Assembly: GCA_036770365.1 (NCBI GenBank)
Contig: DAIPJH010000006.1
Span: forward strand, 64,904-128,903
DNA from: Rickettsiales bacterium
Lineage (GTDB): Bacteria; Pseudomonadota; Alphaproteobacteria; Rickettsiales; UBA998
Direction of reading: 5' to 3'
Length of the DNA stretch: 64,000 nucleotides
Of this stretch, positions 461 through 17,888 are shown in pieces. A model generated the notes under the pieces. It ran no database searches and was not told where the DNA came from. It was given only the letters and a program-made list of their open reading frames with translations. Within the stretch, counting starts at the first letter, position 1. Every line of letters starts with the position of its first letter. The position numbers and the translations under genes are program-made.

Positions 461-1246
461 ATGAGATCATTAAACATTGCCGCAACAGGGATGACAGCAC
501 AACAGCTCAATGTTGATACTACCTCCCATAACCTTGCCAACATGACCACCACTGGCTACAAACGTCAGCGTGCTGAGTTTCAAGATTTGATTTACCAAGA
601 TTTAAAACGTGCGGGCGCGAATTCTTCTGACAATGGTACGGTCGTACCAACAGGCGTTCAAATTGGTCTAGGGGTAAAAACAGGGGCGATTTTCCGTAAC
701 CATGGACAAGGCACGGTACAACAAACAGAAGGGCCGCTGGATGTCGCGATGCAAGGACGCGGCTTCTTCAAGATTCAAATGCCTGATGGATCAGATGCCT
801 ACACCCGTGATGGAACATTCCAGTTAAGCCCTGATGGACAGATTGTTACATCTGATGGTTATATTGTACAACCAAACATCACCATCCCCAATGATGCCGT
901 CAGTGTCAGTATCAGTGCAACGGGCGTTGTAGAAATCATTCAAACAGGGCAGATCAATCCCACTCAAGTAGGTCAACTCCAATTAGTGAGCTTTATCAAT
1001 GAACCGGGATTGCAAGCACAAGGAAATAACCTTTATACTGCCACCGCCGCCTCAGGTGATCCGATCGAGGGGCTTGCAGGTGATCCAGGTTTTGGATCAA
1101 TTTTACAAGGCTACGTAGAAAATTCGAACGTTGATCCTGTGACTGAAATTACCGATTTGATTGTCGCACAGCGTGCTTACGAGATGAACTCAAAAGTTAT
1201 CACTGCATCTGATGAAATGCTTCAATCTTTGGCACAATCAGCGTAA
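461..1246 (+). CDS. flgG: Flagellar basal-body distal rod protein FlgG
   Basis: MRSLNIAATGM..QQLNVDTTSHNLANMTTTGYK, YTRDG and ENSNVDPVTEITDLIVAQRAYEMNSK motifs; 261 aa. Confidence 0.97.
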   Translation: MRSLNIAATGMTAQQLNVDTTSHNLANMTTTGYKRQRAEFQDLIYQDLKRAGANSSDNGTVVPTGVQIGLGVKTGAIFRNHGQGTVQQTEGPLDVAMQGRGFFKIQMPDGSDAYTRDGTFQLSPDGQIVTSDGYIVQPNITIPNDAVSVSISATGVVEIIQTGQINPTQVGQLQLVSFINEPGLQAQGNNLYTATAASGDPIEGLAGDPGFGSILQGYVENSNVDPVTEITDLIVAQRAYEMNSKVITASDEMLQSLAQSA

Positions 1247-1404
1247 AAGTTGCTAGGGTTTAGGGGCTAGTATATGTTAGTACTTTAACTTCATGATTCA
1301 CCATTTTCTTGAGAATTATTACGTTAAACGACTATAGTTTTTTTCAAGTGTCGCGCTGTTGTAAAAAGCGCGGTTTTTTGGCAAAAGAAAGAAAACACAT
1401 CAAG

Positions 1405-2841
1405 ATGAAGCCGTCACACACACTAGTTTCCGCTGCGCTATGTTTGATCATGATGCCGCTATGCACATGGGCAGCAGAACCAATTCAAACAGAGAAATCC
1501 GCACAAGACGCCAGCTCTCAAGCCGAGCGTGAACGTATTGTCCGCGCCTTGGTAGAGGGAGATGACAAAACTGCTTCCTCTTTCCAAGATGTCACGCTAC
1601 CCACGGTGGAGACTCCCCCTTCCACCGCTACGACAACCACTACACCTGCCATCGCATCTGGAGAAAACGGAAAAACCTCACTCTTTGAGGTCACACGCCG
1701 CGATGCGGAAGCATCTGTTGGTATTGCCCTTGCCGCAGCAGGTGCTTCAGAACTTACAGAAGCAGACATCATCAAACCGATCAACACCATCCTCTACAAA
1801 CACGACAAACCTCTGAAAATTGAGGTAAAAACCTTGCAATTTGATCCAAAGTCCCATCTTTGGAATGGGAATCTATTGTTGATTGACGAAACAGGGAACG
1901 TGGTCACTGCCATGCCCGCGAGTGGGCGTTGGCAGGAACTAAAATCTGTGCCATCCCTTAAACATACCATTCGTGCGGGCGAGATGATCAAAGAAGAAGA
2001 CATTGTACAGATGCATTATCCCGCAAGCCGCTTGCACGACGATAATGTGGTGGACGCTTCGGAACTGATTGGCAAAACGCCACGTCGCTCCATTTCCAAC
2101 AGCCGCCCAATCCGCAAAAATGAAGTGCAAGCTCCAGCCATGGTCAAAAAAGGTGCGACCGTGACCATGCATTACAACACCCCTGCCATGAGCATAACGA
2201 CCATAGGCCAAACCCTCCAAGACGGCGGTAAAGGCGAGTTAATTCGCGTAAAGAACATCGACAGCAACGCCATTGTGCAAGCTAGTGTCCTCTCTGAAAA
2301 TGAAGTACAGGTTGGTGGCTTTGATGGCATCAACACCAACGTGCAGGCAGTGATTCTCTCACCTGCCAAAAAAGATGTTGTAGTGCAAGCTGGCAAAGAA
2401 GTCGCCATACCGCTAACGCCGACACCACAAACCACAGCATCTCCTGCGCCGGCAGCAACAGAAACACCTGCACCTGAGCCTCAGCAAGCGTTACCGACAG
2501 AAAATACCGCAGACTCGGCAAAATCTGCCGAGCCAGCTCAGTCTACGCTTGCCAATCCAACGCTTCAACAACCCATTCCCATCACACGGGGCGTCCCTTC
2601 TCGTGCTGACATTGACAAAGCATCTGAAGAAGAGAAGAAAAAACAAGAGCTTAAAGAAAAAATGGTGCGTGATGCCTTTATGAATGAAGAAGGGATGACC
2701 CCCACCAAAGCGTTAGAGAGTCTCAACCCAGATGACATGATTCTTGCACCAAAGAAGATGTTTACCTCACCAGAATTGCCAGATCTTGATCCCACCAAGC
2801 CTCGTGATCCCGCCAACCCGTTTAAAGGAATGACGCCATGA
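1405..2841 (+). CDS. flgA: Flagellar P-ring formation chaperone FlgA, extended form
   Basis: Signal peptide from ATG 1405; SAF-like core (GKTPRRSI..VKKGATVTM..GQTLQDGGKGELIRVKNIDS); lies between flgG and flgH. Confidence 0.8.
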   Translation: MKPSHTLVSAALCLIMMPLCTWAAEPIQTEKSAQDASSQAERERIVRALVEGDDKTASSFQDVTLPTVETPPSTATTTTTPAIASGENGKTSLFEVTRRDAEASVGIALAAAGASELTEADIIKPINTILYKHDKPLKIEVKTLQFDPKSHLWNGNLLLIDETGNVVTAMPASGRWQELKSVPSLKHTIRAGEMIKEEDIVQMHYPASRLHDDNVVDASELIGKTPRRSISNSRPIRKNEVQAPAMVKKGATVTMHYNTPAMSITTIGQTLQDGGKGELIRVKNIDSNAIVQASVLSENEVQVGGFDGINTNVQAVILSPAKKDVVVQAGKEVAIPLTPTPQTTASPAPAATETPAPEPQQALPTENTADSAKSAEPAQSTLANPTLQQPIPITRGVPSRADIDKASEEEKKKQELKEKMVRDAFMNEEGMTPTKALESLNPDDMILAPKKMFTSPELPDLDPTKPRDPANPFKGMTP

Positions 2842-3605
2842 AAAAGCTCTCCTCCACCACCACTCTGACTCTGTGCGCGGGCATCTTCATGTTGAGCGGC
2901 TTAAGCGGATGCGCCACTACTTTGAATAAGCTTGAAACCGTAGGAGACTCTCCTGCGATGACCAAAACCGAAGACCCAACCACACGCCCGAACTATCAGC
3001 CTGTAAGCTGGCCTGTGACCAAACAGCCTGTACCAAGTGAACGTCAAGCAAATTCGCTCTGGCAACCAGGGGCGCGAGCCTTTTTCCGTGACCAACGCGC
3101 CAGCCGTGTTGGCGATATTTTACGTGTACGCATTGCCATCAAAGATAAAGCCGAGCTGAACAATGAAACGCAGCGCAAGCGCGATACCAAAGAAAATGTT
3201 GGCGCGCCTGAAGTCTTTGGTATGGGTGGCAAACTAGGGCTGCTTACCCCCGGAAAACCAAATCCAGAGAGCCTGTTCGACATCACAGGGAAAACCGACA
3301 ATAAAGGTACGGGGACGGTGAAACGTCAGGAAAAGATTGAAACCCAAGTTGCTGCGCTCATCACCCAAGTACTTCCAAACGGCAACTACGTAATTTCAGG
3401 TTCGCAAGAGATGCGCATCAACTATGAAATTCGTGAAGTATCTGTCAGCGGCGTCGTTCGCCCCCAAGATATTGACATGGACAACACGGTAGATTCCTCA
3501 CAGATCGCCGAAGCACGCGTTATCTACGGTGGTCGCGGTCAACTCAGCGATGTCCAGCAACCGCGCTGGGGTTCTCAGGTGATTGATATTTTATCGCCGT
3601 TTTGA
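2838..3605 (+). CDS. flgH: Flagellar L-ring lipoprotein FlgH
   Basis: Lipobox LSGC; SLWQPGARAFFRDQRASRVGDIL, VLPNGN and QQPRWG motifs. Confidence 0.95.
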   Translation: MKKLSSTTTLTLCAGIFMLSGLSGCATTLNKLETVGDSPAMTKTEDPTTRPNYQPVSWPVTKQPVPSERQANSLWQPGARAFFRDQRASRVGDILRVRIAIKDKAELNNETQRKRDTKENVGAPEVFGMGGKLGLLTPGKPNPESLFDITGKTDNKGTGTVKRQEKIETQVAALITQVLPNGNYVISGSQEMRINYEIREVSVSGVVRPQDIDMDNTVDSSQIAEARVIYGGRGQLSDVQQPRWGSQVIDILSPF

Positions 3606-3677: not shown

Positions 3678-4307
3678 ATGAGACGTGACGACGATTTGCA
3701 AAAACCTATTCTTGGTACAATTTCACAAACCATGCGGACAGACAGTGGGCATATTGCCCGTTATAGACATACTGTACGCGAGGGTGACTATGTGCCTATC
3801 GAACTAGCAAGACCTAAGGGGTATAAATCGCGCCAAAAAGAAAAGATGACCACCCATGAGGACGCCATGATTGAACATGTCGCTAACATTGGTCATGAAG
3901 CACTATCTGACTATGAACAAGGAACACAACAACTTCCTCATTATCCAAAACTGGACAAAACAACACACGATGACATTGAGGCACGACAAAACGAACATTT
4001 TCAGCGTATGGTTGATGCTGGTAATTTAAGGCATGAACTGGAATTTGGCGAACACAGAGAAAAATTAACAAACCTCTCGTGGGAAACAGGCCACCCTTTG
4101 CATGATTTGGATGCTACTCCCCAAGAACGTACCGTTCACGTGGGCAGCATTCCCCTAACACGACAAGAATACCCAATTCTGTCTCACACACCAGAAGAGT
4201 TTACTACCGCACTCCGCGATGCAAAGAAGCGTCATTTTGGTAGACATACGGGTAAGATCCTTGATGACATCACCTCCCCTCCTGAACCGTCACCGCGAGG
4301 CCGCTAA
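3678..4307 (+). CDS. Hypothetical protein, paralogue of 5470..6024
   Basis: 209-aa ORF with RBS AAGGA; shares a 54-aa C-terminal block with ORF 5470. Confidence 0.75.
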   Translation: MRRDDDLQKPILGTISQTMRTDSGHIARYRHTVREGDYVPIELARPKGYKSRQKEKMTTHEDAMIEHVANIGHEALSDYEQGTQQLPHYPKLDKTTHDDIEARQNEHFQRMVDAGNLRHELEFGEHREKLTNLSWETGHPLHDLDATPQERTVHVGSIPLTRQEYPILSHTPEEFTTALRDAKKRHFGRHTGKILDDITSPPEPSPRGR

Positions 4308-4318
4308 TATATACTCAC

Positions 4319-5176
4319 TTATGACCGTGGTGATATTGGTGGGGATGACTGTGCCTTGTTAATGACATGCGTTGCCATCAAGGGCTGTAAGCCAGCCATG
4401 AGTGTATCAAGCTCTTTATCATGTGCATCTAATATATTTTTCAATGCATCATCAGCAACATCCCTACCAAATTGTCCAGATGCCTTGGCTTGATTATGCG
4501 CATCCATTTGTACACATGCCAAGGCCGCATCAACATAAGATTCAATACGTTCGTCAGGCAACTCGCTTGCAATGAAGTGTTTTATGACACCACGTTCAGC
4601 ATCCACAATTTTTGTGATCATGGCATCATAACAAGGCTGAACGCTAGGACGCACACGGGCGGTTGCCTCAAAACAAAGCAATGTATCCTGCAGCCCAACA
4701 AGGGCGTCAATTTTGCTTCCAATATCACGAGGCAACCGCTGCTCTTGATACGTTTTTGCTGTTAGAAATCCATCTACAAGCCGCCCCACCCGTGCAAGAG
4801 CGGAAAAATCTTTTTGTGCAAATAAGGAAACAACCTCATCTGGTAAAAACGCAGCAAGCTCAGAAACGTCAACGCCATGAAGTAATTGTTGAACACCATC
4901 CTCAAAAAACGACGCGCTGCTAGGGTTTAAAATCAATGACTTCACTACATCATGATGATTTAAATAACTTTGAAAATCAAAATTATCAGCGCGATACGAA
5001 CGAATACCACTATCCCTCACATCCGCCTCACCAATAGCAAGATCAATCAATTTTGCAAACCCTTCAAGATTCCTTATCGCTTCCTTATCTTTACGATGTG
5101 CTAGCGCATGCTGATTCTTATGCAGAAAATCAAGATAATGATTGTAGTTCGCCACCATTCTTTCGGCAACACCCAT
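4319..5176 (-). CDS. Hypothetical helical protein
   Basis: 285-aa ORF with RBS AAAGGAG; no recognisable family. Confidence 0.75.
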   Translation of the reverse strand: MGVAERMVANYNHYLDFLHKNQHALAHRKDKEAIRNLEGFAKLIDLAIGEADVRDSGIRSYRADNFDFQSYLNHHDVVKSLILNPSSASFFEDGVQQLLHGVDVSELAAFLPDEVVSLFAQKDFSALARVGRLVDGFLTAKTYQEQRLPRDIGSKIDALVGLQDTLLCFEATARVRPSVQPCYDAMITKIVDAERGVIKHFIASELPDERIESYVDAALACVQMDAHNQAKASGQFGRDVADDALKNILDAHDKELDTLMAGLQPLMATHVINKAQSSPPISPRS

Positions 5177-5469: not shown

Positions 5470-6024
5470 ATGAGTGATGCAACAAAACATCCTATAGCCG
5501 ATGGTCCTTATACCCCTATTGGTGAAGCATCCTCAGTGGAGTATAGTGCTGCGCGTGACAAACAAAAAGCTATCATAGAGCATGAAGCGGCAACTGGCGT
5601 TGAATCAGTACGCAGAGCAGCACATAGCAACTATATGGATAGCAGTACAGAATTTTACGACGAAGGGCAGTATATGCTGCCTAAAGATAAGGCGGCACTA
5701 GTAGCATCAATGAATACGCAACAAGAGTTGTCAAGAGCTGCCCTTGAAGCTAGAGATGCCATCAAGGCAGGTGAACATGATGACACGCTCTCAAATCTAG
5801 GCAAAGACGGTCATCCAGTGGTTGATCTTACCGCCACACCTTCTGCTAAAGGCATCAAAGTCAAAGGAATTGAAGTCAGTCGTCTTGAGTATCCTGTTGT
5901 AGCACGTAACGCAGGCGAGTTTGGCGCAGCAGTAGCAACAGCAAAATCTGCAGTACTTGGTAAACATACAAGTGATTATGTATCACAGGCTGTTACAGCA
6001 GCCGAAGAAGGCTTAAAGCGTTAG
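5470..6024 (+). CDS. Hypothetical protein, paralogue of 3678..4307
   Basis: 184-aa ORF; shared GHP..DL.ATP..R.EYP..EF..AK..G.HT block. Confidence 0.75.
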   Translation: MSDATKHPIADGPYTPIGEASSVEYSAARDKQKAIIEHEAATGVESVRRAAHSNYMDSSTEFYDEGQYMLPKDKAALVASMNTQQELSRAALEARDAIKAGEHDDTLSNLGKDGHPVVDLTATPSAKGIKVKGIEVSRLEYPVVARNAGEFGAAVATAKSAVLGKHTSDYVSQAVTAAEEGLKR

Positions 6025-6029
6025 TAATA

Positions 6030-8261
6030 CTAAGAAAATTTATTATTTCTTGGGAAGCCAACAGGCGGTAAACGCCCCGAAGTGGCACGGTGTCCGTACC
6101 ATGGGGTAATGTCGGTTTCTGTGCGGGTTTTTGCGCCCAGACTCCAGCTTAAGCCATCTTCCTTTTTGAACAGTAAGATATCTGAAATATGACCGTCTTT
6201 ATATTTTTGCAGCATGACGCCCTGCCCACGCACCATTTCAGGAATCTCAGAAAGCGGAAAACACAGAAGTTTACGGTTTTTGCCAATGACTGCGACGGTA
6301 TCTTGACCCGCAATAATCGGGATACAAAATGCTGCTTTACCTGTGCCGACATTAAGAATCTGTTTGCCGCCTTTGGTGGAGGCAACAACTTGCTCTGCAT
6401 CGACCACAAACCCTCGCCCAGCGTCACTTACGACCAATAATTTTTGACCTTTTTCATGTGCAAGTGCGGTGATGATGTCAGCGTCATTCGGCAAATCCAT
6501 CATCAAGCGCAGCGGCTCACCAAAGCCTTTACCGCGTGCGATTCTATCACCTACAAGCGAATAAAAACGCCCGTTAGTAGCAAAAAACATCAAAGAATCT
6601 GTGGTGCGGGTTTTGAATGAAAACGCAACTTCATCACCCTCTTTCAGCTTCACATCAGAAATATCATCAAAATGTCCTTTAAGTGCGCGAATCCATCCCA
6701 TACGTGAGTAAATCACTGTAATAGGCTCTTTTTCAATAAAAGCTTCCACGTGAATTTCAGTAATCGTTGGAGCAGATTCAAACATCGTGCGGCGTTTACC
6801 AAGTGGAGTATCCACCCCAAAGCGTTTTTGGATGTCTTTAATTTCGCCACGAATCACGCCGCGAGCTTTGGTTTCATCAGTCAAAATTGCGCCCAGTTCT
6901 GCTGCTTCCGCTTCTAACTCGGCTTTTTCCTTTTGAATTTCCATCTCTTCAAGTTTACGCAAATTACGCAAGCGCATATTGAGAATAGCTTCAGCTTGCA
7001 CATCAGTTAAATCCCATTTCGTCATCATCACTTGTTTAGGATGATCTTCCTCACGAATGATACGGATGACTTCGTCAATATTAAGATACGCAACCAGCAA
7101 TCCGCCTAAAATTTCTAAACGCGCCTCAATTTTGCCCAAACGATAACGTGAACGGCGATACAGCACATCATAACGATGCGCGATGAAAGCCTCCAAGATT
7201 TCTTTCAAATCCATCACTTTCGGCATCCCAGACGCAGAAAGCACGTTCAGGTTAAAGTTAATGCGGCTTTGTAAGTCAGTGACTTTGAACAAAGATTCCA
7301 TTAACATTGCAGGATCGACCGAGCGTGATTTTGGCTCTAGCACCACACGCATGTCCTCAGCGGATTCATCACGTATATTAGCAAGCAACGGCAACTTTTT
7401 ATTTTTGAACAAATCTGCAATTTTTTCAATCAAACGCGACTTCGGCACTTGGTAAGGAATCTCAGTGATCACAATCTGATATAAACCATGTGATAACTGT
7501 TCAACCTCCCACTTCGCACGAATGCGCAGCGCACCGCGCCCTGTAGTGTAAGCATTTAAAATCGTAGCGCGTTCTTCGCAAATCGTGCCGCCCGTAGGGA
7601 AATCTGGGCCAGGCAAAACATCTAAAATCTCAGCAATGGTAGTGGTTGGTTTTTTAAGCAACAACAGCAATGCATCACACAACTCGCCAACATTATGCGG
7701 CGGCACCGAGGTTGCCATCCCAACTGCGATCCCCTCTGCGCCATTGGCAAGCAAATTCGGAAACGCCGCAGGCAGCACCACAGGCTCTTCTTCCGAGCCG
7801 TCATAGGTAGGGCGAAAATCCACCGTATCTTCGTCAATGCGCTCTAATAACGTCATTGCCACTTCGGTCAAACGTGCCTCAGTATAACGCATCGCAGCGG
7901 CATTATCACCGTCAATCGAGCCAAAATTGCCCTGACCATCCACCAGCGGGTAACGCACTGCAAAGGTCTGCGCCAAACGCACCATCGTGTCATAAACCGC
8001 AACATCGCCATGTGGGTGATATTTACCAATCACATCCCCGACCACACGGGCGCATTTTTTATAGCCCGAATCAGGATTGAGTTTCAGCAACAACATCGCA
8101 TAGAGCAAACGTCGATGCACAGGCTTCAAGCCATCACGCACATCTGGCAGTGAGCGCGAAGTAATAGTAGACATCGCGTACGCCAAATAACGCTCAGAAA
8201 TGGCATCCTTGAAGGATACAATCTGCGTGTCATCATGTTTTGTAGGTGTGGAAGCTGTCAT
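6030..8261 (-). CDS. parC: DNA topoisomerase IV subunit A
   Basis: RSLPDVRDGLKPVHRR, KYHPHGD and AAAMRYTEARL motifs; 743 aa with a short C-terminal domain typical of ParC rather than GyrA. Confidence 0.95.
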   Translation of the reverse strand: MTASTPTKHDDTQIVSFKDAISERYLAYAMSTITSRSLPDVRDGLKPVHRRLLYAMLLLKLNPDSGYKKCARVVGDVIGKYHPHGDVAVYDTMVRLAQTFAVRYPLVDGQGNFGSIDGDNAAAMRYTEARLTEVAMTLLERIDEDTVDFRPTYDGSEEEPVVLPAAFPNLLANGAEGIAVGMATSVPPHNVGELCDALLLLLKKPTTTIAEILDVLPGPDFPTGGTICEERATILNAYTTGRGALRIRAKWEVEQLSHGLYQIVITEIPYQVPKSRLIEKIADLFKNKKLPLLANIRDESAEDMRVVLEPKSRSVDPAMLMESLFKVTDLQSRINFNLNVLSASGMPKVMDLKEILEAFIAHRYDVLYRRSRYRLGKIEARLEILGGLLVAYLNIDEVIRIIREEDHPKQVMMTKWDLTDVQAEAILNMRLRNLRKLEEMEIQKEKAELEAEAAELGAILTDETKARGVIRGEIKDIQKRFGVDTPLGKRRTMFESAPTITEIHVEAFIEKEPITVIYSRMGWIRALKGHFDDISDVKLKEGDEVAFSFKTRTTDSLMFFATNGRFYSLVGDRIARGKGFGEPLRLMMDLPNDADIITALAHEKGQKLLVVSDAGRGFVVDAEQVVASTKGGKQILNVGTGKAAFCIPIIAGQDTVAVIGKNRKLLCFPLSEIPEMVRGQGVMLQKYKDGHISDILLFKKEDGLSWSLGAKTRTETDITPWYGHRATSGRLPPVGFPRNNKFS

Positions 8262-8456: not shown

Positions 8457-9095
8457 ATGTCAAAAACTTACCTAAATTACATTCAATTCACATCAGACAG
8501 CCCATCAGTCACAATACATGTACTCGATGCGTCAGCAGCGCATACGCAATCTCCCATAGTAGCCCATGAGGAAGACATCATCACACAATTATCCGAGCAA
8601 TATCCCGCACCATCTCCTTTTAAGATGGCGCAAGCAACGGGGATCGCCAAAATGTTTCTTAAAGAAAAACTACCTGAAGCCATTGATGGTGTGGATAAAA
8701 CCACTTACATTAACAATAGCTTCTTTAGGTTAGAAAATGATGCAGCAGGCACATTAAGAACAGGCTACACCGAAGCGGGCAAAGATTTGATCCATGATGT
8801 TGTTGCAATCATGACAATCGAAGGCATATCAGCCGAAAAAGCAATGCTTACACTTGCGAGCGATCTTGCAGCTTCTACTTCCCCTATCACAGAAGAAGAA
8901 TTAGCCTCCTATGCTTTGAAGCACCCTGATATTGTCAAGCTAGGCACGGGACAAAACCAAGATGCGGCAACACCTTCGGCACAAAAACCAACCTCTACCT
9001 TACCATCCAAATATGATGCACACTATCTGCGTAGCTACGGCAAGCTACACCCTGATATTGTAACACTAGCTGATTCAAAAACACGAAACAGGTAA
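8457..9095 (+). CDS. Hypothetical protein with duplicated HPDIV motif
   Basis: 212-aa ORF with RBS AAGGA; YALKHPDIVKL and YGKLHPDIVTL. Confidence 0.7.
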   Translation: MSKTYLNYIQFTSDSPSVTIHVLDASAAHTQSPIVAHEEDIITQLSEQYPAPSPFKMAQATGIAKMFLKEKLPEAIDGVDKTTYINNSFFRLENDAAGTLRTGYTEAGKDLIHDVVAIMTIEGISAEKAMLTLASDLAASTSPITEEELASYALKHPDIVKLGTGQNQDAATPSAQKPTSTLPSKYDAHYLRSYGKLHPDIVTLADSKTRNR

Positions 9096-9177
9096 TCATT
9101 TTTAAAAAAAGTAGGGCATTATAAAGTTAAAGTGATATAGACTACCCACAACATATAATAAAAAAGACAAGAACATC

Positions 9178-11958
9178 ATGCGCACACAAATACTTTCTGA
9201 ACTTTCACAACGAGTCGGTGAAACACAACATGTACTGAGTACACTTTTGGCTGGTGGAAAATATGACCCCGCACAACATCCCTTACTCAAAAAACAACTT
9301 GGTTTTATGCATGATGATGGCTATGTACTGGCCGAGCCAAGCGCGTACGAACAAAAAAATAATGGCAAAGACATTGTCACGCGTCAAAACCCAATGCGCC
9401 ATACGCAACGTAACAACCGCAATCGTTTACTAGCAAAACTTGATGACAAAGACATCCAGTTTGTACATATTTTGGGTTCACAGGTACGCCAACGTACCAT
9501 TTCAGGTGAATCTATTCCTGAATATGCTAAGGTCTATATCTGCCCCAAAGCAGATATGTATGCGATGCGTGAAATGACAAGCATCATCAAAGCAAAACTT
9601 GATGCCTTACAATCAGGTGATACCGAAAACCCCATCATCAAAAAACCCCTGATCATTGTCAACCAAGACGTCAACGACCCTAAAGAAACCGCAAAATATT
9701 ATGATGCACTACTCGGCAACCTCAATATCAAAGGAGATATCAGAGACGAGCTGAACATCGTTACTGTGGATACCGTAAATGCGGCGGTCAGCCATGCCGA
9801 ACACGCCTTGTATGTCTTGCGCGATCTCGACACCCCTCCTCGCCCGAAACTTGATCCTGCACTCAAACCAGGAGATACGATTTTTATCCATACTACCACG
9901 GTAGAAAAACTACGTGATTACCAAGAAATTTTTCGTGAGCGTGGCATTACTGTACGGATGCTTTCTGCATTAGAGAGAATCGCAGAAAGTCCTGCGGAAC
10001 ATAGCCATAGTTTTGAAGGTAATGCCGAAGAAAAATTACGCGCTGCACAGAAAATGATTGCAGAGATCCCTGACGAAGTATTCACAACCAAATTTGGACT
10101 AAAACGTTCTCAGGTACATGTCATGGTTGATGATTCTGGCTTTTATATGAATGAACCACGCCTGCTAGATCATATGAACCTTGAAGATATGGGGGGGATC
10201 ATCAACAAGGATGAATGGAAACGCGATAAGATTCCCTTTCCCGGAGTCGAGCTTGGGCCACTGATGAATGCCTCTAACGGTCTTAAGAATTTTATGGATC
10301 GCATCATACAAGCGTTAGATGACATTGATGCACAATATAATGTTCCAGCAGATCGCAGCATGACCGACGTTTCTTGTTTAGCGATTTCCGCCGCCCCTGA
10401 TTATGATCCCTCCGTCAAAGACATCCCACTCGCAGAGTATAGGCCTAAAGTGATGGATTTTATGATGTACGCCAACAAAGATTTAAACTTCAAAGCACGC
10501 ACCGAAAAAAATCTACGATCAAGTGGCATTGACCCACGCCTTGTGGAATCCAAAGATTATCAAATGCCCGCGTATGATAACCCCAAAAATAAGACCATGG
10601 GTGAATTTGAAGCCGAAGACCCTTCATGGCGCGTGCGCAACCACGTGCGAGCCTTGGCCTCACGCGCCTTAATGAGCGAGCTTGGATTACCTGAGCGTAG
10701 TAAACACCCAGAACTTTACAAAGATTTCGACAATCAACGCCGCCAAACAGATACTCGCACTTTCACCATTTCCTTACAGGGCGCAAAACACGATAAGCTT
10801 GCTCATGCACTGATACAACAAGGTGTAGCGAGTCCACAACGTGATGAAGCGCATCCCTTACAAACTCTTTCAGAGATGGAAGACGTCATTAAAACAGCAG
10901 ATGGGTTTGTTTTATTACCACATAATGACAACAACGACCTTGCTGAGAAATGCGAAAAGGCTTTTCGCTTTTGGTCACTGCTTGTAGCTCGTCAAACTGA
11001 TCCTCGTGATAACGACAAACCTATTGTCATCTATAACCCTCATCATGAGTGGGATAAACATCTTGAAGAATACAAAGAACTCCACGCATTAGGCGCGGTG
11101 AAAGAGAAACCTGAATTAATGTTCAAAGTCATCAATGGCAAAGGTGAACATGGCATTAAGGAAATAACAACTTACCTCAAACAGCAACGTGAACAGCGCG
11201 ACCCTCCCATTAACTACGCAAATCACGGCGAAGATAACATCACCCCCAAAAACGACGTGAATCGTTTCAATGTGGCGATTTTTTGTTCTGCCAATTCCGA
11301 AAAAGAATCCTATCAAGCCGATGTTTATAACCTCTCTTATAATCTTTGTAAGGATGGGTTTGGCGTTGTGTATGGCGGTGGCAGTCGCTATATGATCGGT
11401 AAGATTGCAGATGGCGCGCAAGCCGCACAAAATGACGGTTTTGATGCATCCATCACAGGTTCTAGTATGGATCACCTTGTAATTCGTGAAGGTGTTCGTC
11501 CTAATATATTAAAAGAACAAGATTCGTATCACAGTGCGAAACATATCTATCAACGTATGGAATACATGATAGCATCCTCCGATGCGTTTGTGATTGCTCC
11601 GGGGGGCATCGGCACGTTACAAGAACTCTATGCACTCATGTTACTTCAAGCACAACATGCCAAAAATATGACTGGCAAAGAAATAGTGATCGTCAACAAA
11701 CAAGATGAGCATGGGCATGGTTTCTATGACCCGATCCTTGCGAATATCTCTCTTGAAGAACGTAAACAACTTGGCATCACTGTGGTTTCGACCGTGGAAG
11801 AAGCTAAAAACAAGGTAGATGAATTCCGCATACGCAGCGACAAGAATAAAAGCATCGAACATGCCACATCGCTACCGCCAGAAAATTCAAATTTTGTAGA
11901 CAGATTCACGCAGGAAAAGCTCGAAAAAGCACAAAAAACAGCTACAAGAGGCACATAA
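9178..11958 (+). CDS. Multidomain protein: HAM1/ITPase-like domain plus LOG/SLOG-like domains
   Basis: SFEGNAEEKLRAA, VDDSGF and FPGV (HAM1-like); VYGGG and YQRM..DAFVIAPGGIGTLQE (LOG family); 926 aa. Confidence 0.75.
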   Translation: MRTQILSELSQRVGETQHVLSTLLAGGKYDPAQHPLLKKQLGFMHDDGYVLAEPSAYEQKNNGKDIVTRQNPMRHTQRNNRNRLLAKLDDKDIQFVHILGSQVRQRTISGESIPEYAKVYICPKADMYAMREMTSIIKAKLDALQSGDTENPIIKKPLIIVNQDVNDPKETAKYYDALLGNLNIKGDIRDELNIVTVDTVNAAVSHAEHALYVLRDLDTPPRPKLDPALKPGDTIFIHTTTVEKLRDYQEIFRERGITVRMLSALERIAESPAEHSHSFEGNAEEKLRAAQKMIAEIPDEVFTTKFGLKRSQVHVMVDDSGFYMNEPRLLDHMNLEDMGGIINKDEWKRDKIPFPGVELGPLMNASNGLKNFMDRIIQALDDIDAQYNVPADRSMTDVSCLAISAAPDYDPSVKDIPLAEYRPKVMDFMMYANKDLNFKARTEKNLRSSGIDPRLVESKDYQMPAYDNPKNKTMGEFEAEDPSWRVRNHVRALASRALMSELGLPERSKHPELYKDFDNQRRQTDTRTFTISLQGAKHDKLAHALIQQGVASPQRDEAHPLQTLSEMEDVIKTADGFVLLPHNDNNDLAEKCEKAFRFWSLLVARQTDPRDNDKPIVIYNPHHEWDKHLEEYKELHALGAVKEKPELMFKVINGKGEHGIKEITTYLKQQREQRDPPINYANHGEDNITPKNDVNRFNVAIFCSANSEKESYQADVYNLSYNLCKDGFGVVYGGGSRYMIGKIADGAQAAQNDGFDASITGSSMDHLVIREGVRPNILKEQDSYHSAKHIYQRMEYMIASSDAFVIAPGGIGTLQELYALMLLQAQHAKNMTGKEIVIVNKQDEHGHGFYDPILANISLEERKQLGITVVSTVEEAKNKVDEFRIRSDKNKSIEHATSLPPENSNFVDRFTQEKLEKAQKTATRGT

Positions 11959-12033: not shown

Positions 12034-14001
12034 ATGTCGCTACGTCAAATCAAGCATTTCCTGCTTGGGAAACCCCTGAACCCTTTTAAAAAAGAAACCA
12101 GACAACATATCGCTTTAGCGACATTTTTTGCATGGATAGGGCTTGGTGCTGACGGTATTTCATCCTCTGCATATGGACCTGAAGAAGCATTTCACGCGCT
12201 TGGTATGCATAATGACATGGCGATCTTTCTTGCGCTAGCGACGGGATTGACCGTTTTTTTGATCGCCCTTGCTTATTTACAAGTGATCATGCTGTTTCCT
12301 AACGGTGGCGGTGGTTATAAAGTTGCCTCTAAACTGCTCGGCGCAAAAGCAGGACTTGTCTCTGGCTCTGCTTTAATTGTGGATTATATTCTAACTATTG
12401 CCATTTCGATTGCATCGGCAATTGATTCTTTTTTCTCCGTGACACCGATTTCATGGCAACCCTATAAAATCTTTGCTGAATTATTTTTGATTGGTGTCCT
12501 GACCTACATGAATTTGCGGGGCGTAAAAGAATCCATCAAAATACTCATGCCCATCTTTTTAGGGTTCATCTTTGTCTATAGTTTCTTGATCATCTATGGA
12601 ATCGCCTTCCATTCTGAAGGTTTGACCGAACTCCTTCCGAATGCAGTGCATGAAGCGACTACCTCCGCACAATCTATTGGCTGGCTTGCAGTAATTGCCC
12701 TGTTCTTCAAAGCATTTTCACTTGGAGGCGGGACATATACAGGACTAGAAGCTGTCTCCAACAGCGTTCAGAGCCTTGCTGAACCTCGGGTGCGTACAGG
12801 TCGCAACACGATGCTTTGCGTCGCCGCTTCCCTCGCTTTTATGGCGGCAGGGATTATCATGATCTACCTGTTATGGGATGTAGAGCGTATTCCAGGCCAA
12901 ACCATGAACGCTACCGTATTTTCAAAAATCACGGCAGGTTGGGTCATTGCAGACGTCAATATTTCTGAGATGGTCGTTGCTATTGCCATGTTACTTACCG
13001 CTGGGCTATTATTCGTCGCTGGAAATACGGGCTTTATCGCAGGTCCAGCCGTTCTCGCAAATATGGCCCTTGATCGCTGGATGCCACATTTCTTTTCTGC
13101 TCTTTCTAGCCGCTTGGTCACCAAAAACGGAGTAATGTTGATGGGGATGGCGGCGGTGGTCGCACTCATCATTACGGGTGGTCGCGTTGATATGCTGGTG
13201 GTTTTATACTCCATCAACGTATTCCTTACCTTTACCCTTTCGATGGCAGGTGTTACGCGCTACCGTTGGCAACGACGCAGACAAAAAGGTGAACTCAAAC
13301 ATATCATTCTACCTGCTATATCCACCATTATTTGCGCGGGCATCTTATGCACCACCTTATTTGAAAAATTCCTGTTTGGAGGTTGGATGACATGCGTTAT
13401 CACAGGACTTTTCATCATCATCGGCTATTTGATCCACGACCACTATAATACGGTGAAGCAGAAAATCGACCGTACGGAAGGAGATCTTGATAGTGCTATG
13501 GAAAGCTTGGGACGCACTTCTGATGTCGTCAACGAACTTGATCCGAAAAAATCAACCGCGGTCTTTTTGGTTAGCGGCAGCAACGCAAGCGGCATGCATT
13601 GCTTCTTGTGGGTTCAACGTCTGTTTCCTAATGCCTTCCATAATTTTATTTTTGTATCCGTCGGTGAGATCGACACCGAAGAATTCGCAGATCATGAAAA
13701 ATGGCAGCTGTTACGCCGTGACACTAAAAAAATGTTAAAACGCTACGTTGAATTTTGCCACAACCGCGGATTAGCCGCTGAATATTATCATGATTTTGGC
13801 ACAGACGCCTTGGACAAACTCACAGATATTACCAATAAGATCTCCAAAGATTATCCTCGCTCTGTCTTTTTTGCCACCAAACTCATCTTTGAAGATGAAA
13901 GCCCAATTACGCAGTTGCTCCATAACCAAACCGCCTATATTATGCAACGACGTTTGCATAATGCTGGTCGCACAATGATCATCATGCCAATGAAGATATA
14001 A
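12034..14001 (+). CDS. APC-superfamily permease (YdaO/KimA-like) with cytosolic C-terminal domain
   Basis: GADGISSSAYGPEE, PNGGGGY and TGLEAVSN motifs; about 12 TM segments followed by a soluble tail. Confidence 0.85.
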   Translation: MSLRQIKHFLLGKPLNPFKKETRQHIALATFFAWIGLGADGISSSAYGPEEAFHALGMHNDMAIFLALATGLTVFLIALAYLQVIMLFPNGGGGYKVASKLLGAKAGLVSGSALIVDYILTIAISIASAIDSFFSVTPISWQPYKIFAELFLIGVLTYMNLRGVKESIKILMPIFLGFIFVYSFLIIYGIAFHSEGLTELLPNAVHEATTSAQSIGWLAVIALFFKAFSLGGGTYTGLEAVSNSVQSLAEPRVRTGRNTMLCVAASLAFMAAGIIMIYLLWDVERIPGQTMNATVFSKITAGWVIADVNISEMVVAIAMLLTAGLLFVAGNTGFIAGPAVLANMALDRWMPHFFSALSSRLVTKNGVMLMGMAAVVALIITGGRVDMLVVLYSINVFLTFTLSMAGVTRYRWQRRRQKGELKHIILPAISTIICAGILCTTLFEKFLFGGWMTCVITGLFIIIGYLIHDHYNTVKQKIDRTEGDLDSAMESLGRTSDVVNELDPKKSTAVFLVSGSNASGMHCFLWVQRLFPNAFHNFIFVSVGEIDTEEFADHEKWQLLRRDTKKMLKRYVEFCHNRGLAAEYYHDFGTDALDKLTDITNKISKDYPRSVFFATKLIFEDESPITQLLHNQTAYIMQRRLHNAGRTMIIMPMKI

Positions 14002-14041: not shown

Positions 14042-14548
14042 TTGATGGCATATCTTCTAAGACTTTCTTGTTATTTATTGGTAATGATCATCGCCCTACC
14101 TTCTTACAGCTTTGAGCGACTACAAGCTCCTGTACCGTCTTTAAATGCGACTCCTGCTCCCCTAGTGAAACGCAGCGTTTTCATCCATAAACACAATGGT
14201 GAACTTATAAAACGCTCCCTTGAGATGGCAGATACACCAGAAAGCGCAGAAGCTGGCTTGATGTTTCGCCGCGAACTTGAAGCAGATGGGGGCATGGTCT
14301 TCAATTTTTCCAACTGTTCGCACCACGCTATGTGGATGAAAAACACTTATATTCCGCTCGATATGATTTTTGTGGGTTGTGACGGTACTATCACGCATAT
14401 TATTTCCAACGTCACGCCGCTCAGTGAAAAAATCATCACACCTCAAGAAAAATCCGCGGCAGTGATTGAACTTCATGCAGGAGAGAGCGCAAAGCTTGGT
14501 CTTGCGGTGGGTGACAAGGTTGAGATTCAACAGAGGATCATGCCATGA
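14042..14548 (+). CDS. DUF192 domain protein (exported)
   Basis: EMADTP..GLMFR..GGMVF..MWMKNTYIPLDMIFV..VIELHAG..GDKV. Confidence 0.88.
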   Translation: MMAYLLRLSCYLLVMIIALPSYSFERLQAPVPSLNATPAPLVKRSVFIHKHNGELIKRSLEMADTPESAEAGLMFRRELEADGGMVFNFSNCSHHAMWMKNTYIPLDMIFVGCDGTITHIISNVTPLSEKIITPQEKSAAVIELHAGESAKLGLAVGDKVEIQQRIMP

Positions 14549-15228
14549 GACACCTCCTTATACTCTGTCTCATAATACTATCTATCACCTCAGCCCATGC
14601 AAATGACATCATGCCTAATACTGACGGCACAGGGCAACTTATCTTTAGTCGTGACAAACTTGTGATTTATGCCACTGGCTCTATCCCCGTCGTCATGCCA
14701 GACATAGAAGCACCCAAGGATAAAGACCCTAAAAAAGATCTCAATGTTGGAGATAAAGACCCTAAAACGGGGCAAACCATCATCTTTAAAAAAGAAAGCA
14801 AAGAGACGCCTGCGCCTGATAATAAAACAGACAAAACTAAAATTGTTTATAGCAGCGAACCACGTGAAGTGAGTTTTTCTACTGAAGTACGCGATGAATC
14901 CGCATTTCAACTTGAATGGCTACCCAGTTTACATAATCTAACAAATAATTCTGCCTATTTGGTTCTACAACCTGTCGGTAATATGATTCACATCGGTGCG
15001 CTGCGCACCCCTGTTAAACTCGACATCGTCATTATCCGCCCTAATGGACGTGTACTTGCCATCATGCCTGATATTTCTCCTTCCAGCCTAGGAAATGATA
15101 TTGATGCTGGAGAAGATGTCCGTGGCATTCTCTTCCTAAAAGCAGGCATGGCGCAACTTCATGGTATACGCCCGAATGATGAAGTGCGTCATCATGGCTT
15201 CAACCTCGACCCGAAGGTATTAAAGTAA
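14545..15228 (+). CDS. Divergent DUF192-like exported protein
   Basis: Signal peptide; LDIVIIRPNGRV..ILFLKAG.AQLHGIRPNDEV resembles the DUF192 C-terminus; overlaps the stop of the upstream gene. Confidence 0.55.
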   Translation: MRHLLILCLIILSITSAHANDIMPNTDGTGQLIFSRDKLVIYATGSIPVVMPDIEAPKDKDPKKDLNVGDKDPKTGQTIIFKKESKETPAPDNKTDKTKIVYSSEPREVSFSTEVRDESAFQLEWLPSLHNLTNNSAYLVLQPVGNMIHIGALRTPVKLDIVIIRPNGRVLAIMPDISPSSLGNDIDAGEDVRGILFLKAGMAQLHGIRPNDEVRHHGFNLDPKVLK

Positions 15229-15433: not shown

Positions 15434-16060
15434 ATGCCGATCGCCAACCCAAAACTTGTTACTCAAACAATTACACGCCCAAGCCGCGAACAGGCGATGG
15501 AGGCCGTGCGTACATTGATTGCTTGGGCAGGTGATGATATCACCCGCGAAGGATTGCTAGAGACCCCCAAGCGCGTGGTGGAAGCATACCGTGAATTTTT
15601 CCAAGGTTATGATGAAGACCCTGAAGCTGTCTTATCAAAAACCTTTGAAGAAGTAGAAGACTACGATGAGATGGTACTGCTGAAAAATATGCGCTTGGAG
15701 TCACACTGCGAACATCACATGGTAGCAATTATTGGTAAGGCGCATATTGCTTACGTTCCCAACAAGCGCGTTGTCGGCATCAGCAAGATCGCTCGTTTGG
15801 TGGATGTCTATGCCAAACGCCTGCAAACGCAAGAAACCTTAACTGCGCAGATTGCGGATACGCTGCAACGTGTACTTGAACCAAAAGGTGTCGCGGTTGT
15901 TATTGACGCCGCGCATCAATGCATGACCACACGCGGTGTCCATAAATCAGAAACTACTACTGTCACCAGCCGCTTGCATGGAATTTTTAAATCTGACCCA
16001 CGTACTCGCGCTGAATTTATGAATCTTGTGGCGTCACCTTCGGTTGGGAATATGAGTTAG
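15434..16060 (+). CDS. folE: GTP cyclohydrolase I
   Basis: REGLLETPKRV, SHCEHH, GISKIARLV, RLQTQE and HQCMTTRG motifs. Confidence 0.97.
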   Translation: MPIANPKLVTQTITRPSREQAMEAVRTLIAWAGDDITREGLLETPKRVVEAYREFFQGYDEDPEAVLSKTFEEVEDYDEMVLLKNMRLESHCEHHMVAIIGKAHIAYVPNKRVVGISKIARLVDVYAKRLQTQETLTAQIADTLQRVLEPKGVAVVIDAAHQCMTTRGVHKSETTTVTSRLHGIFKSDPRTRAEFMNLVASPSVGNMS

Positions 16061-16195: not shown

Positions 16196-16765
16196 ATGAT
16201 CATCCTCGCCTCTGCCTCCACTATACGCTCTGCCATGCTGTCTAGCGCGGGGGTGCAGCATGAAGTTTTGCCGCCCGACGGGTTTGATGAAGAAGCACTT
16301 AAAGCCTCGCTTACAGATACTCCACCCAGACAAAAAGCCGTGATGCTCGCCAAGGGTAAAGCAGCCTATATCAGTGAGCTTCGTCCAGATACACTGGTGC
16401 TTGCCGCCGATCAGATATGCGCAATGGGGAACATGATTTTTAGCAAGCCAAAAACGCCTGAACATGCCTTTGAGCAACTTTTACAACTTCGTGGCAAGAC
16501 CCATCATCAATACAGCGCAGCATGTTTTTACCACCGTGGTGTATGTATATGGGAGCATGTCGAGACCGCAAGCCTAACCATGCGCACTCTTACCGACGCA
16601 GAAATTACAGCTTATATCGCACTAGATAATCCTCTTAATTCTTGTGGCGCATACATGTTTGAGCGTCACGGTAAGCACCTTTTTTCTCACGTCGAAGGCA
16701 CTGACGATGTCATTCAGGGCTTGCCGCTTACCGCGCTGCTAGAGGCACTTTACGCGGTAAGCTAG
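16196..16765 (+). CDS. maf: Maf family nucleoside triphosphate pyrophosphatase
   Basis: IILASAS..R, LAKGKA, VLAADQI, SKP, GAY.FE and VIQGLPL motifs. Confidence 0.9.
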   Translation: MIILASASTIRSAMLSSAGVQHEVLPPDGFDEEALKASLTDTPPRQKAVMLAKGKAAYISELRPDTLVLAADQICAMGNMIFSKPKTPEHAFEQLLQLRGKTHHQYSAACFYHRGVCIWEHVETASLTMRTLTDAEITAYIALDNPLNSCGAYMFERHGKHLFSHVEGTDDVIQGLPLTALLEALYAVS

Positions 16766-16781
16766 CGTTTCTTATTCATCC

Positions 16782-17864
16782 CTAGCCAATAATATTAGCA
16801 TCAGTTAGACTGTGAACATTCTTCAAGAAAATATCTAACAACATCTGACCTTCTGTATCAGACTGACTAACATGCAACCCTTTGCTAGAGTCCACCATTA
16901 CAAATCCTGCTGATCCGCCTGCATAAGCAGAAAAATCGAGATGATCCACAAGCGTATTAAAGTCATTAATGATAGCATACGCTGCGCCATACAATGCATT
17001 TTGCACAGCAAAACTATCCGCACCATCTCCACCCGCAAGCGTGGTTGTACCTACAGTAAAATATAAAGTATCATCACCTGCACCGCCGTTCAGTGATGCT
17101 ACGCCAACGTCTTGTAAAAGTGTATCACTACCGTCACCACCGCGTAGCGTATTTGTACCACCCGCCGCCGTTAAGCTATCATTACCAAGACCGCCATCAA
17201 GGGTTGCAACACCTATGCCAGAAGTGATATTGTCATCACCCGCATCACCAAAAAAAGCATATGTACCATCTTGTCCTGAGATCGCGTCGTTATCTTCCCC
17301 GCCGCGCACGGAAGCATATATACCCGCCGCGATGGAAATAACATCTAAACCTGCCCCACCATTGATGGTATTACCCGCTTCAAATACCTCCACAGTATCA
17401 TTACCAGCTTCGCCAAAGGTTGTGCCGTTATAAGTCCCTACGTAGAAGTAATCATCTCCATCACCACCACGCACCTTGACTTCAGAGCCATAAACAAAGA
17501 ATTCATCATTTCCAGCGTCGCCATAATAAACACCGAATTCACCGCTAATATTAAAGAAATCATTCCCCGCATTGCCGTGGAACAAATTATTGTTACCTGT
17601 AACGTCAAACACATCGTCACCGTCATCACTGTAAACAGTGTCATTATTAGAAAAAGAAAAAATACGGTCATCACCTGCTTCACCGCGAACGTAGGTTGCA
17701 TCACCAAATAACCAAATAAAATCTGAACCTTCACCTGCATAAACAGAATCAGCACCATAAGAAGCATTAATGGTATCATTGCCTGCATAACCATAGATTT
17801 TTTCAATATCTAGGGTATCGTCAATTATATCTGAATTGGTCGTACCACGAATAATGCTTACCAT
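16782..17864 (-). CDS. RTX-type calcium-binding repeat protein
   Basis: Many G-x-x-G-x-D nonapeptides; C-terminal IINDFNT..DHLDF..LLDIFLKNVHSLTDANII type I secretion-like tail; RBS GGAG before ATG 17864. Confidence 0.85.
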   Translation of the reverse strand: MVSIIRGTTNSDIIDDTLDIEKIYGYAGNDTINASYGADSVYAGEGSDFIWLFGDATYVRGEAGDDRIFSFSNNDTVYSDDGDDVFDVTGNNNLFHGNAGNDFFNISGEFGVYYGDAGNDEFFVYGSEVKVRGGDGDDYFYVGTYNGTTFGEAGNDTVEVFEAGNTINGGAGLDVISIAAGIYASVRGGEDNDAISGQDGTYAFFGDAGDDNITSGIGVATLDGGLGNDSLTAAGGTNTLRGGDGSDTLLQDVGVASLNGGAGDDTLYFTVGTTTLAGGDGADSFAVQNALYGAAYAIINDFNTLVDHLDFSAYAGGSAGFVMVDSSKGLHVSQSDTEGQMLLDIFLKNVHSLTDANIIG

Positions 17865-17888
17865 AATGACTCCAAAAAACATTAAAGG

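Follow-up and report, generated by a model that had tools for sequence, protein, structure and literature searches.

In yeast, gene-dosage and epistasis data place Log1p downstream of Ham1p in breaking down non-canonical purine and pyrimidine nucleotides, a transporter (an efflux pump) serving as the sink (Carlsson et al. 2018, PMC5940212), and the two proteins were proposed to prevent non-canonical purines and pyrimidines from entering nucleic acids (PMC5940212). LOG enzymes release cytokinin bases and have active sites that dimerisation completes, and in the LOG of C. glutamicum Ser19 and Gly116-Thr119 bind phosphate while Arg99 and Glu122 are catalytic (PMC4979012). A preprint describes PpnN as a multi-domain LOG enzyme under (p)ppGpp regulation (bioRxiv 10.1101/2025.04.13.648610). 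Here we report on a gene in a 64,000-nucleotide stretch of a Rickettsiales genome (contig DAIPJH010000006.1; hereafter the window, to which all coordinates refer unless a locus number is given), which joins a HAM1/RdgB/ITPase-like pyrophosphatase module and a LOG module in one polypeptide. From its sequence we consider it reasonably probable that the product is a cytoplasmic housekeeping enzyme that degrades nucleotides in two steps on a single chain.

The gene is an uninterrupted open reading frame (ORF) of 926 aa with an ATG start (9178-11958, + strand), and the complete product consists of a helical N-terminus, a degenerate half-LOG, a HAM1-like module, a degenerate LOG-like module, a catalytic LOG module and a C-terminal tail. 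Modelled with AlphaFold2 (AF2) on a 113-sequence alignment, it forms one compact multidomain chain (predicted local distance difference test, pLDDT, 94; predicted template-modelling score, pTM, 0.92); this run replaced one with a 6-sequence alignment (pLDDT 62), in which the HAM region was unusable. A first-pass annotation, made from the letters of the window, had named this set of domains from short motifs, all of which are present in the translation (IFIHTTTVEKLRDY, SFEGNAEEKLRAA, VDDSGF, FPGV, KTMGEF..NHVRALA and YQRM, as well as the repeat peptides KPLIIVNQD/YYDALLGNL/IVTVDTV, KEIVIVNKQD/FYDPILANI/ITVVSTV and ADGFVLLP/KPIVIYNP). Its coordinates convert correctly (9871-10680 is residues 232-501, and PGGIGTLQE at 11599-11625 is residues 808-816), and sequence, profile and fold all agree with its domain calls: a pyrophosphatase of HAM1 type, a LOG that is intact and two further LOG-like copies that have degenerated. 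The resemblances go far past what chance would give.

The catalytic LOG module (residues ~695-888; 11260-11841, +), of the cytokinin-riboside / nucleotide 5'-monophosphate phosphoribohydrolase type, was identified by sequence, profile, fold and conservation. The single sequence matches the Pfam model PF03641 with 49.4 bits against a threshold of 27 (E 6.6e-13) and, in the PDB, the LOG structure 5zbj (E 3e-9), while the profile of the 113-sequence family reaches the LOG structure 2a33 with E 2.5e-27. Foldseek comparison of the AF2 model with the PDB returned the LOG fold as well (5zbk, E 4.9e-7, template-modelling (TM) score 0.79; 7w2i_B and 3qua, both TM 0.83). The likeness to the LOG/TIGR00730 family (5zbk, 7w2i, 2a33 and 5its; TM 0.79-0.83) includes the PGGxGTxxE and GGGxxGxMG motifs, the Arg and Glu of catalysis and the Ser that binds phosphate. 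In the window protein these fall at S704, GGG 733-735, R793 (11554-11556) and the PGGIGTLQE stretch given above, and they are retained almost without exception among the relatives: S704 in 107/110, G733 in 109/109, R793 in 108/108, G810 in 107/109, G812 in 109/109, T813 in 98/108 and E816 in 108/108, with M740 conserved as well. The conserved residues correspond to Ser19, Arg99, Gly116-Thr119 and Glu122 of the C. glutamicum enzyme, and the signature that the first-pass annotation had called intact is confirmed, the PGGxGTxxE motif being accompanied by the GGG loop and the Arg/Glu pair. The module differs from the described LOG proteins in an insertion of 20-40 residues that follows the GGG helix and in the position equivalent to the adenine-contacting Glu121, which is Gln in 82/108 members.

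The HAM1/RdgB/ITPase-like nucleoside triphosphate (NTP) pyrophosphatase module (residues 232-501; 9871-10680, +) is more divergent, and its identification draws on sequence, profile, Foldseek, conservation and matches to viral HAM1 proteins. For the single protein sequence the match to PF01725 is marginal (23.8 bits, with the gathering cut-off at 22.5, and restricted to positions 2-71 of the 186 in the profile); at family level it is clear. Highly divergent, independent relatives show an equally weak Ham1 match in the same place, and the family profile finds HAM1/RdgB structures in the PDB (3tqu, E 2.3e-9; 2pyu, 8e-7; also 6wwd, 1k7k and 4bnq, with E-values ranging up to 1e-5). A profile of the HAM module by itself matches both the N-terminal half ('ATxNxxK...E..TF.ENA..KA') and the C-terminal half ('F.VP...T.AEL...SHR..AL') of 3tqu and 1k7k. 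The model has the HAM1 fold at 9871-10680, the lack of which had been set beforehand as grounds for abandoning the assignment: Foldseek returned 3tqu_A (E 1.2e-5, TM 0.72), 2pyu and 1k7k (both 0.67) and 4bnq (0.63), among which RdgB has TM 0.67 and the S. aureus Ham1 0.63. Among viral models (BFVD), the best matches were a dITP/XTP pyrophosphatase, a LOG protein from a phage and potyvirid polyproteins that bear HAM1. One of these models, the 363-aa phage 'dITP/XTP pyrophosphatase' A0A8S5RY51 (Myoviridae sp. ctNQV2), aligns over 420 columns, which exceeds a plain HAM1 domain, and may carry an extra domain.

The catalytic residues of the HAM1 family are kept. Alignment to RdgB structures places the Lys of motif 1 at K244 (9907-9909, +), the metal-binding Glu at E274 (9997-9999, +), the Lys of 'ENAxxK' at K286 (10033-10035, +), with N282 as its Asn, and the second Asp of 'DDSG' at D319 (10132-10134, +). 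Their conservation is close to complete (K244 111/111, E274 112/112, N282 112/113, K286 113/113 and D319 112/112), so that the Thr-x-x-x-x-Lys, Glu, 'xxGNxxxK' and 'DDSG' motifs of HAM1/RdgB/ITPA appear with an invariant K/E/K/D set. P355 and E358 of P355-G356-x-E358 are nearly invariant too, and the 'PGVE' found here stands at the place of what we take to be 'PGIYSAR' in RdgB. The C-terminal 'T-x-A-E ... S-x-R' helix of the present family also aligns with 'TAAEL...SHRG' of HAM1/RdgB. The module departs from that family in several respects. It holds ~100 residues of insertions relative to the ~190-residue Pfam Ham1 profile, and it is embedded in a four-module chain, whereas HAM1/RdgB is a ~200-aa protein that acts as a homodimer. 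The His of SHR is absent, and in place of the base-binding 'GYDP' loop the family has 'HF/Y-L-V-P'. The suggestion that FGYDP and SHR are altered was therefore correct: in the window protein their equivalents are 'VESKDYQMP' and H489-V490-R491, and across about 110 sequences the SHR positions hold S in 73, P in 36 and R in 53. With the base-reading motifs replaced and the phosphate/Mg2+ centre intact, the range of substrates probably differs from the classical ITP/XTP range, and it may be broader or directed at pyrimidines. Lacking the motifs of the base pocket specific for hypoxanthine/xanthine (an aromatic residue with the 'GYDP' loop, and 'SHR'), the module ought not to be classed as specific for ITP/XTP, and when the Gln at the Glu121 position is considered together with them, the base acted on probably differs from that of classical ITPases or of cytokinin LOGs.

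The conservation indicates that both active centres are under strong purifying selection. Because both centres are conserved in 108-113 divergent relatives, a two-step reaction is the reading that we favour. In the first step, the HAM1/RdgB-like module would hydrolyse an NTP or dNTP, giving its monophosphate and pyrophosphate (PPi), as its fold and conserved catalytic residues suggest. In the second, the LOG module would, on the same grounds, cleave the N-glycosidic bond of the monophosphate, releasing the free base and ribose-5-phosphate (R5P). The N-terminal and middle LOG-like copies, having lost their catalytic loops, would serve as built-in partners of the LOG module and hold the modules together. 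The net effect would be the irreversible removal of surplus or unwanted (d)NTPs and their return as base and R5P, for pool sanitation or for salvage and catabolism. The first-pass annotation had proposed this same route from NTP through the nucleoside monophosphate (NMP) to base and R5P, and the proposal appears reasonable given the conserved centres and its agreement with the one made for yeast Ham1p and Log1p. Both activities occur in yeast in the identical order, and in the clade of the window a permease gene follows the fusion. The yeast case differs in that it involves two separate proteins and rests on genetic evidence only, whereas the bacterial case is one polypeptide with two additional pseudo-LOG modules and is known from sequence.

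The N module (residues ~91-215; 9448-9822, +) corresponds to a degenerate C-terminal half of a LOG/SLOG Rossmannoid, and the MID module (residues ~525-675; 10750-11202, +) is a small LOG-like Rossmannoid. Slices of the family alignment were compared with hhalign, and an alignment of 6 sequences showed the same trend. The N module (residues 116-209) matched the LOG module (residues 800-882) with a probability of 97.4% and E 9e-12 over 82 columns, and the MID module (residues 563-630) matched it (residues 790-855) with a probability of 96% and E 4e-9; the HAM module, used as a negative control, gave ~0% against every other module. These values bear out the earlier alignment of the N-terminal segment with the C-terminal LOG domain and the call of a third, degenerate copy in the middle of the chain. 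A hidden Markov model (HMM) built from the LOG slice also cross-matches the N region of several relatives, and 'KPLIIVN' of the N module aligns with the LOG strand 'KEIVIVN'. In the model, MID has five strand-helix units and N roughly the C-terminal half of such a Rossmannoid. No conserved GGG or PGGxGTxxE loop was found in N or MID across the family alignment; in the degenerate copies of the window protein the place of PGGxGTxxE is taken by 'PKADMYAMRE' (N module) and 'LLPHNDNNDLAE', and in the family this loop reads P-x-(G/A)-D-x-x-A in N and is variable in MID, where V603, Q606 and K614 ('SLLVARQ...DKPIVIYN') are the conserved residues. Judged by these loops, the chain contains three LOG-derived modules of which only the last is catalytically equipped. 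The first 90 residues (9178-9447, +) are helical in the secondary structure of the model, belong to no recognisable family and showed no similarity to the other modules in the hhalign slices; the C-terminal helical tail (residues 889-926; 11842-11955, +) has lower model confidence and is poorly conserved.

Since the active sites of LOG enzymes are completed by dimerisation, N and MID most likely act as scaffold and as partners in cis, taking the place of the second subunit in the obligate LOG dimer; in this the fusion would differ from LOG proteins, which homodimerise. The inactive copies may have an allosteric, nucleotide-binding role as sensors, and we regard the structural pseudo-dimer role as at least as likely. 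Sensing is central to an alternative in which the protein is a regulated nucleosidase of the PpnN type. LOG would then be the sole metabolic catalyst, and the main task of the HAM1-like, N and MID modules would be to sense nucleotides or alarmones and so activate it, for example in starvation or the stringent response. PpnN (YgdH), a pyrimidine/purine nucleotide 5'-monophosphate nucleosidase, is likewise a multidomain bacterial enzyme with a LOG core, one that cleaves ordinary NMPs, and its (p)ppGpp regulation, described in the preprint cited above, would be a precedent. PpnN structures are among our sequence and fold matches, N and MID are catalytically dead, and MID-LOG also exists alone in proteins of 350-450 aa. 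Yet the NCBIfam equivalog model for PpnN (NF038390) scores 13.2 bits against a cut-off of 450 and aligns with the LOG core only, the flanking domains of PpnN were not detected, those of the present protein are different, and PpnN has no HAM1 module. In addition, an invariant Lys/Glu/Lys/Asp set in 111-113 sequences is what one expects of a working pyrophosphatase and not of a mere binding domain, and we therefore hold the PpnN-type alternative to be unlikely.

The combination of modules is recurrent. A word-index search of 5.8 billion proteins gave 6 matches, a number that did not change when the 113-sequence profile was used as query, and pointed to extreme rarity; this impression was overturned when 1.84 billion representatives were scanned exhaustively with an HMM, which returned 3070 matches with E<=1e-3, including 134 with E<=1e-30; many are ~900-980 aa long and cover the whole profile. 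In a sample of 154 sequences (150 listed matches plus the homologues of the first round, clustered at 50% identity), the HAM module is present in at least 113 clusters (113/154 sequences); among the matches listed, the N part is missing from ~45 (~750 aa), and ~20 consist of MID-LOG alone. Most of the 113 relatives have no more than 20-28% identity with the window protein, and the retention of HAM-MID-LOG in at least 113 clusters that are only about 20-25% identical to it speaks for selection on the combination. Members are named 'hypothetical protein [Micavibrio sp.]', 'LOG family protein' or 'predicted Rossmann-fold nucleotide-binding protein', and the matches in genomes come from alphaproteobacterial metagenome-assembled genomes (MAGs), including a complete uncultured Micavibrio chromosome; the peptide-pattern scan of genome contigs was narrow (3 loci), which under-samples the taxonomic breadth. 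The architecture is thus recurrent in Micavibrio-like Alphaproteobacteria, and its HAM1 part is unannotated. The rarity assumed earlier did not stand, and on the related question of whether this is already a common annotated family the answer is divided, as the architecture is common enough but only its LOG part carries an annotation. The literature searched, to which the 2015 survey of SLOG by Burroughs et al. does not belong, yielded no description of a HAM1-LOG fusion.

Both chemistries are known and the protein is not a new type of system; what is new is an unannotated, recurrent fusion with pseudo-enzyme copies. As a 'Rosetta-stone' fusion it links a HAM1-type with a LOG-type activity and offers independent comparative-genomic support for the Ham1p to Log1p route, and it supports nucleotide clean-up, rather than cytokinin synthesis, as the ancestral job of LOG. 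More than 100 clusters labelled 'hypothetical' or 'LOG family' conceal one HAM1 domain and a pair of pseudo-LOG domains, and recognising these should improve the annotation of Micavibrio-like genomes. An enzyme that is normally dimeric is here present three times within one chain, two of the copies being inactive, which would provide a case of pseudo-enzyme scaffolding.

The loci that were examined are all housekeeping in character and syntenic within their clade. In the Micavibrio clades the fusion gene lies between sucB and lpdA, and at the loci L001-L003 and L009-L013 a co-directional gene of 149-151 aa directly upstream codes for an Fcy1-type cytosine deaminase, a full-length homologue of yeast Fcy1 (PDB 1ysd, E 4e-41). 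A divergent paralogue family of ~320 aa with the CDA fold, conserved across distant members, flanks the fusion in L002, L012 and L016. The Fcy1-type gene and the ~320-aa gene form a pair in L002 (9141-9596, +, and 8024-9043, -), which also occurs in L001, L003 and L009-L013, and two ~320-aa CDA-like paralogues are present in L016 (5847-6794 and 9232-10158). The ~320-aa protein contains a HAE...PCxxC deaminase motif and has no solved relative. Because the Fcy1-type gene is directly upstream, the base released in the Micavibrio clades is probably, at least in part, cytosine, and the substrates there may include cytosine nucleotides. A more far-reaching version of the two-step reading would make the protein a 'nucleotide shredder' that turns (d)NTPs into base and R5P, whose dead copies, as an internal pseudo-oligomer, both complete the LOG site and sense nucleotides or alarmones, and which serves as a core enzyme that defines a Micavibrio-like, prey- or host-dependent lineage, converting acquired nucleotides (especially those of cytosine, passed to the Fcy1-type deaminase) into carbon and bases; we put it forward only tentatively, as a doubtful extension.

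In the window, the order of genes is parC (-), an orphan ORF, the fusion gene, an APC-family permease, two DUF192 genes, folE and maf. This order is retained at the locus of a 58%-identical orthologue, and its gene-permease-DUF192 part at that of a 42%-identical one. The permease gene (APC superfamily, 655 aa; 12034-14001, +) begins 75 nt 3' of the fusion gene, no terminator-like hairpin was found in this 75-nt gap, and the two genes may be co-transcribed. Upstream of the fusion gene, a promoter-like site with GTGATA and TATAAT separated by a 16-nt spacer (9132-9159, +) ends 19 nt 5' of the ATG; it has 10/12 matches and is a consensus match only.

Several of these observations bear on the role in anti-phage defence that the first-pass annotation had raised. 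As a defence or toxin effector, the protein would deplete nucleotides on a trigger, with the degenerate SLOG copies as sensors. Nucleotide depletion is a known defence logic, and both superfamilies have members in defence systems, HAM1 in KomB (the HAM1-like protein of Kongming, PDB 8zsg) and SLOG in sensors of the ThsA type. The match to KomB is nonetheless marginal (E 0.003-0.008), and the fusion lacks SIR2, TIR or any other effector as well as partner genes. PADLOC-DB 2.0 models gave no match at E<=0.01 to the protein or to six of its neighbours, and in about 12 distinct loci there were no defence islands, mobile-element borders or partner effector or sensor genes; within clades the gene is instead syntenic with core genes. 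Such integrase-family genes as occur nearby are all paired with DUF484 and were read as candidate chromosomal xerC-type recombinases. With every locus examined being of the housekeeping kind and none having defence-island or integrase-bounded features, the proposed defence or effector role was not borne out, and we judge it very improbable.

A secreted or injected effector with which a predatory or host-associated bacterium destroys the nucleotides of its prey or host is only slightly less improbable a role. Relatives do come from Micavibrio-labelled MAGs, and Micavibrio is an epibiotic predator. The contig of one relative has ankyrin, Sel1 and TPR genes, that of another has type IV secretion genes, and the window codes for an RTX protein with calcium-binding nonapeptide repeats (366 aa; 16782-17882, -; PF00353, E 9e-19). 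Against this, no signal peptide was evident by eye at the N-terminus, the position among core metabolic genes is conserved, and the link to a cytoplasmic cytosine deaminase points to an internal pathway.

Since LOG enzymes release cytokinin bases (PMC4979012), one could also imagine that the LOG module acts on a modified NMP and that the free modified base serves as a cytokinin-like signal. The relative P0034 adjoins an IPPT/MiaA-family gene. This miaA is located beside serB, with hflK/C-like and degP-like genes further upstream, which we read as ordinary housekeeping synteny, and no other locus examined has miaA; a cytokinin reading drawn from this single neighbour was rejected on that ground. 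The replacement of the Glu121 equivalent by Gln in most members and the fusion to an NTP pyrophosphatase, which has no role in cytokinin synthesis, likewise speak against such a signal, and we attach hardly any credence to it.

Some of our results weigh against the two-step housekeeping reading itself. The LOG module scores 72.4 bits with TIGR00730, below the trusted cut-off of 96.35. The HAM module is very divergent, with a Pfam match barely above threshold that covers one third of the profile. Moreover, only about half of the members (~47%) keep the Arg of SHR, and another loop stands in place of the GYDP type. Neither the substrate nor even the product can be read from the sequence. Neighbourhoods vary by clade, other relatives adjoining prs, radA-cvpA-purF, miaA-serB or msrAB, and there is thus no family-wide operon partner that would define a pathway. 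Finally, tblastn found neither the cytosine deaminase of the Micavibrio clades nor the ~320-aa CDA-like gene in the 64-kb window.

Other features of the window concern the neighbours of the fusion gene. The permease has ~200 extra C-terminal residues outside Pfam coverage. The two DUF192-type genes are in tandem with a 4-nt overlap (14042-14548 and 14545-15228, +) and are kept 3' of the permease in the orthologue loci. folE, coding for GTP cyclohydrolase I (15434-16060, +), and maf (16196-16765, +) lie on the same strand 3.5-4 kb downstream, and maf (TIGR00172, 119 bits) represents a second house-cleaning nucleotide pyrophosphatase near the fusion. The first-ATG translation of parC (6030-8261, -) has no exact copy in the protein collection, unlike those of folE and the thiolase, and a different start may have been chosen for parC in the public annotation. 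Around parC lie four ORFs of 184-285 aa that had no Pfam match (3678-4307, +; 4319-5176, -; 5470-6024, +; 8457-9095, +), and the last three also had no NCBIfam or PADLOC match. No tRNA genes or Rfam families were detected at threshold across the window, whose GC content ranges from 41 to 53% with a persistently negative GC skew. The flagellar basal-body genes flgG, flgA and flgH are present at 461-3605 (+), and the organism is therefore probably motile.

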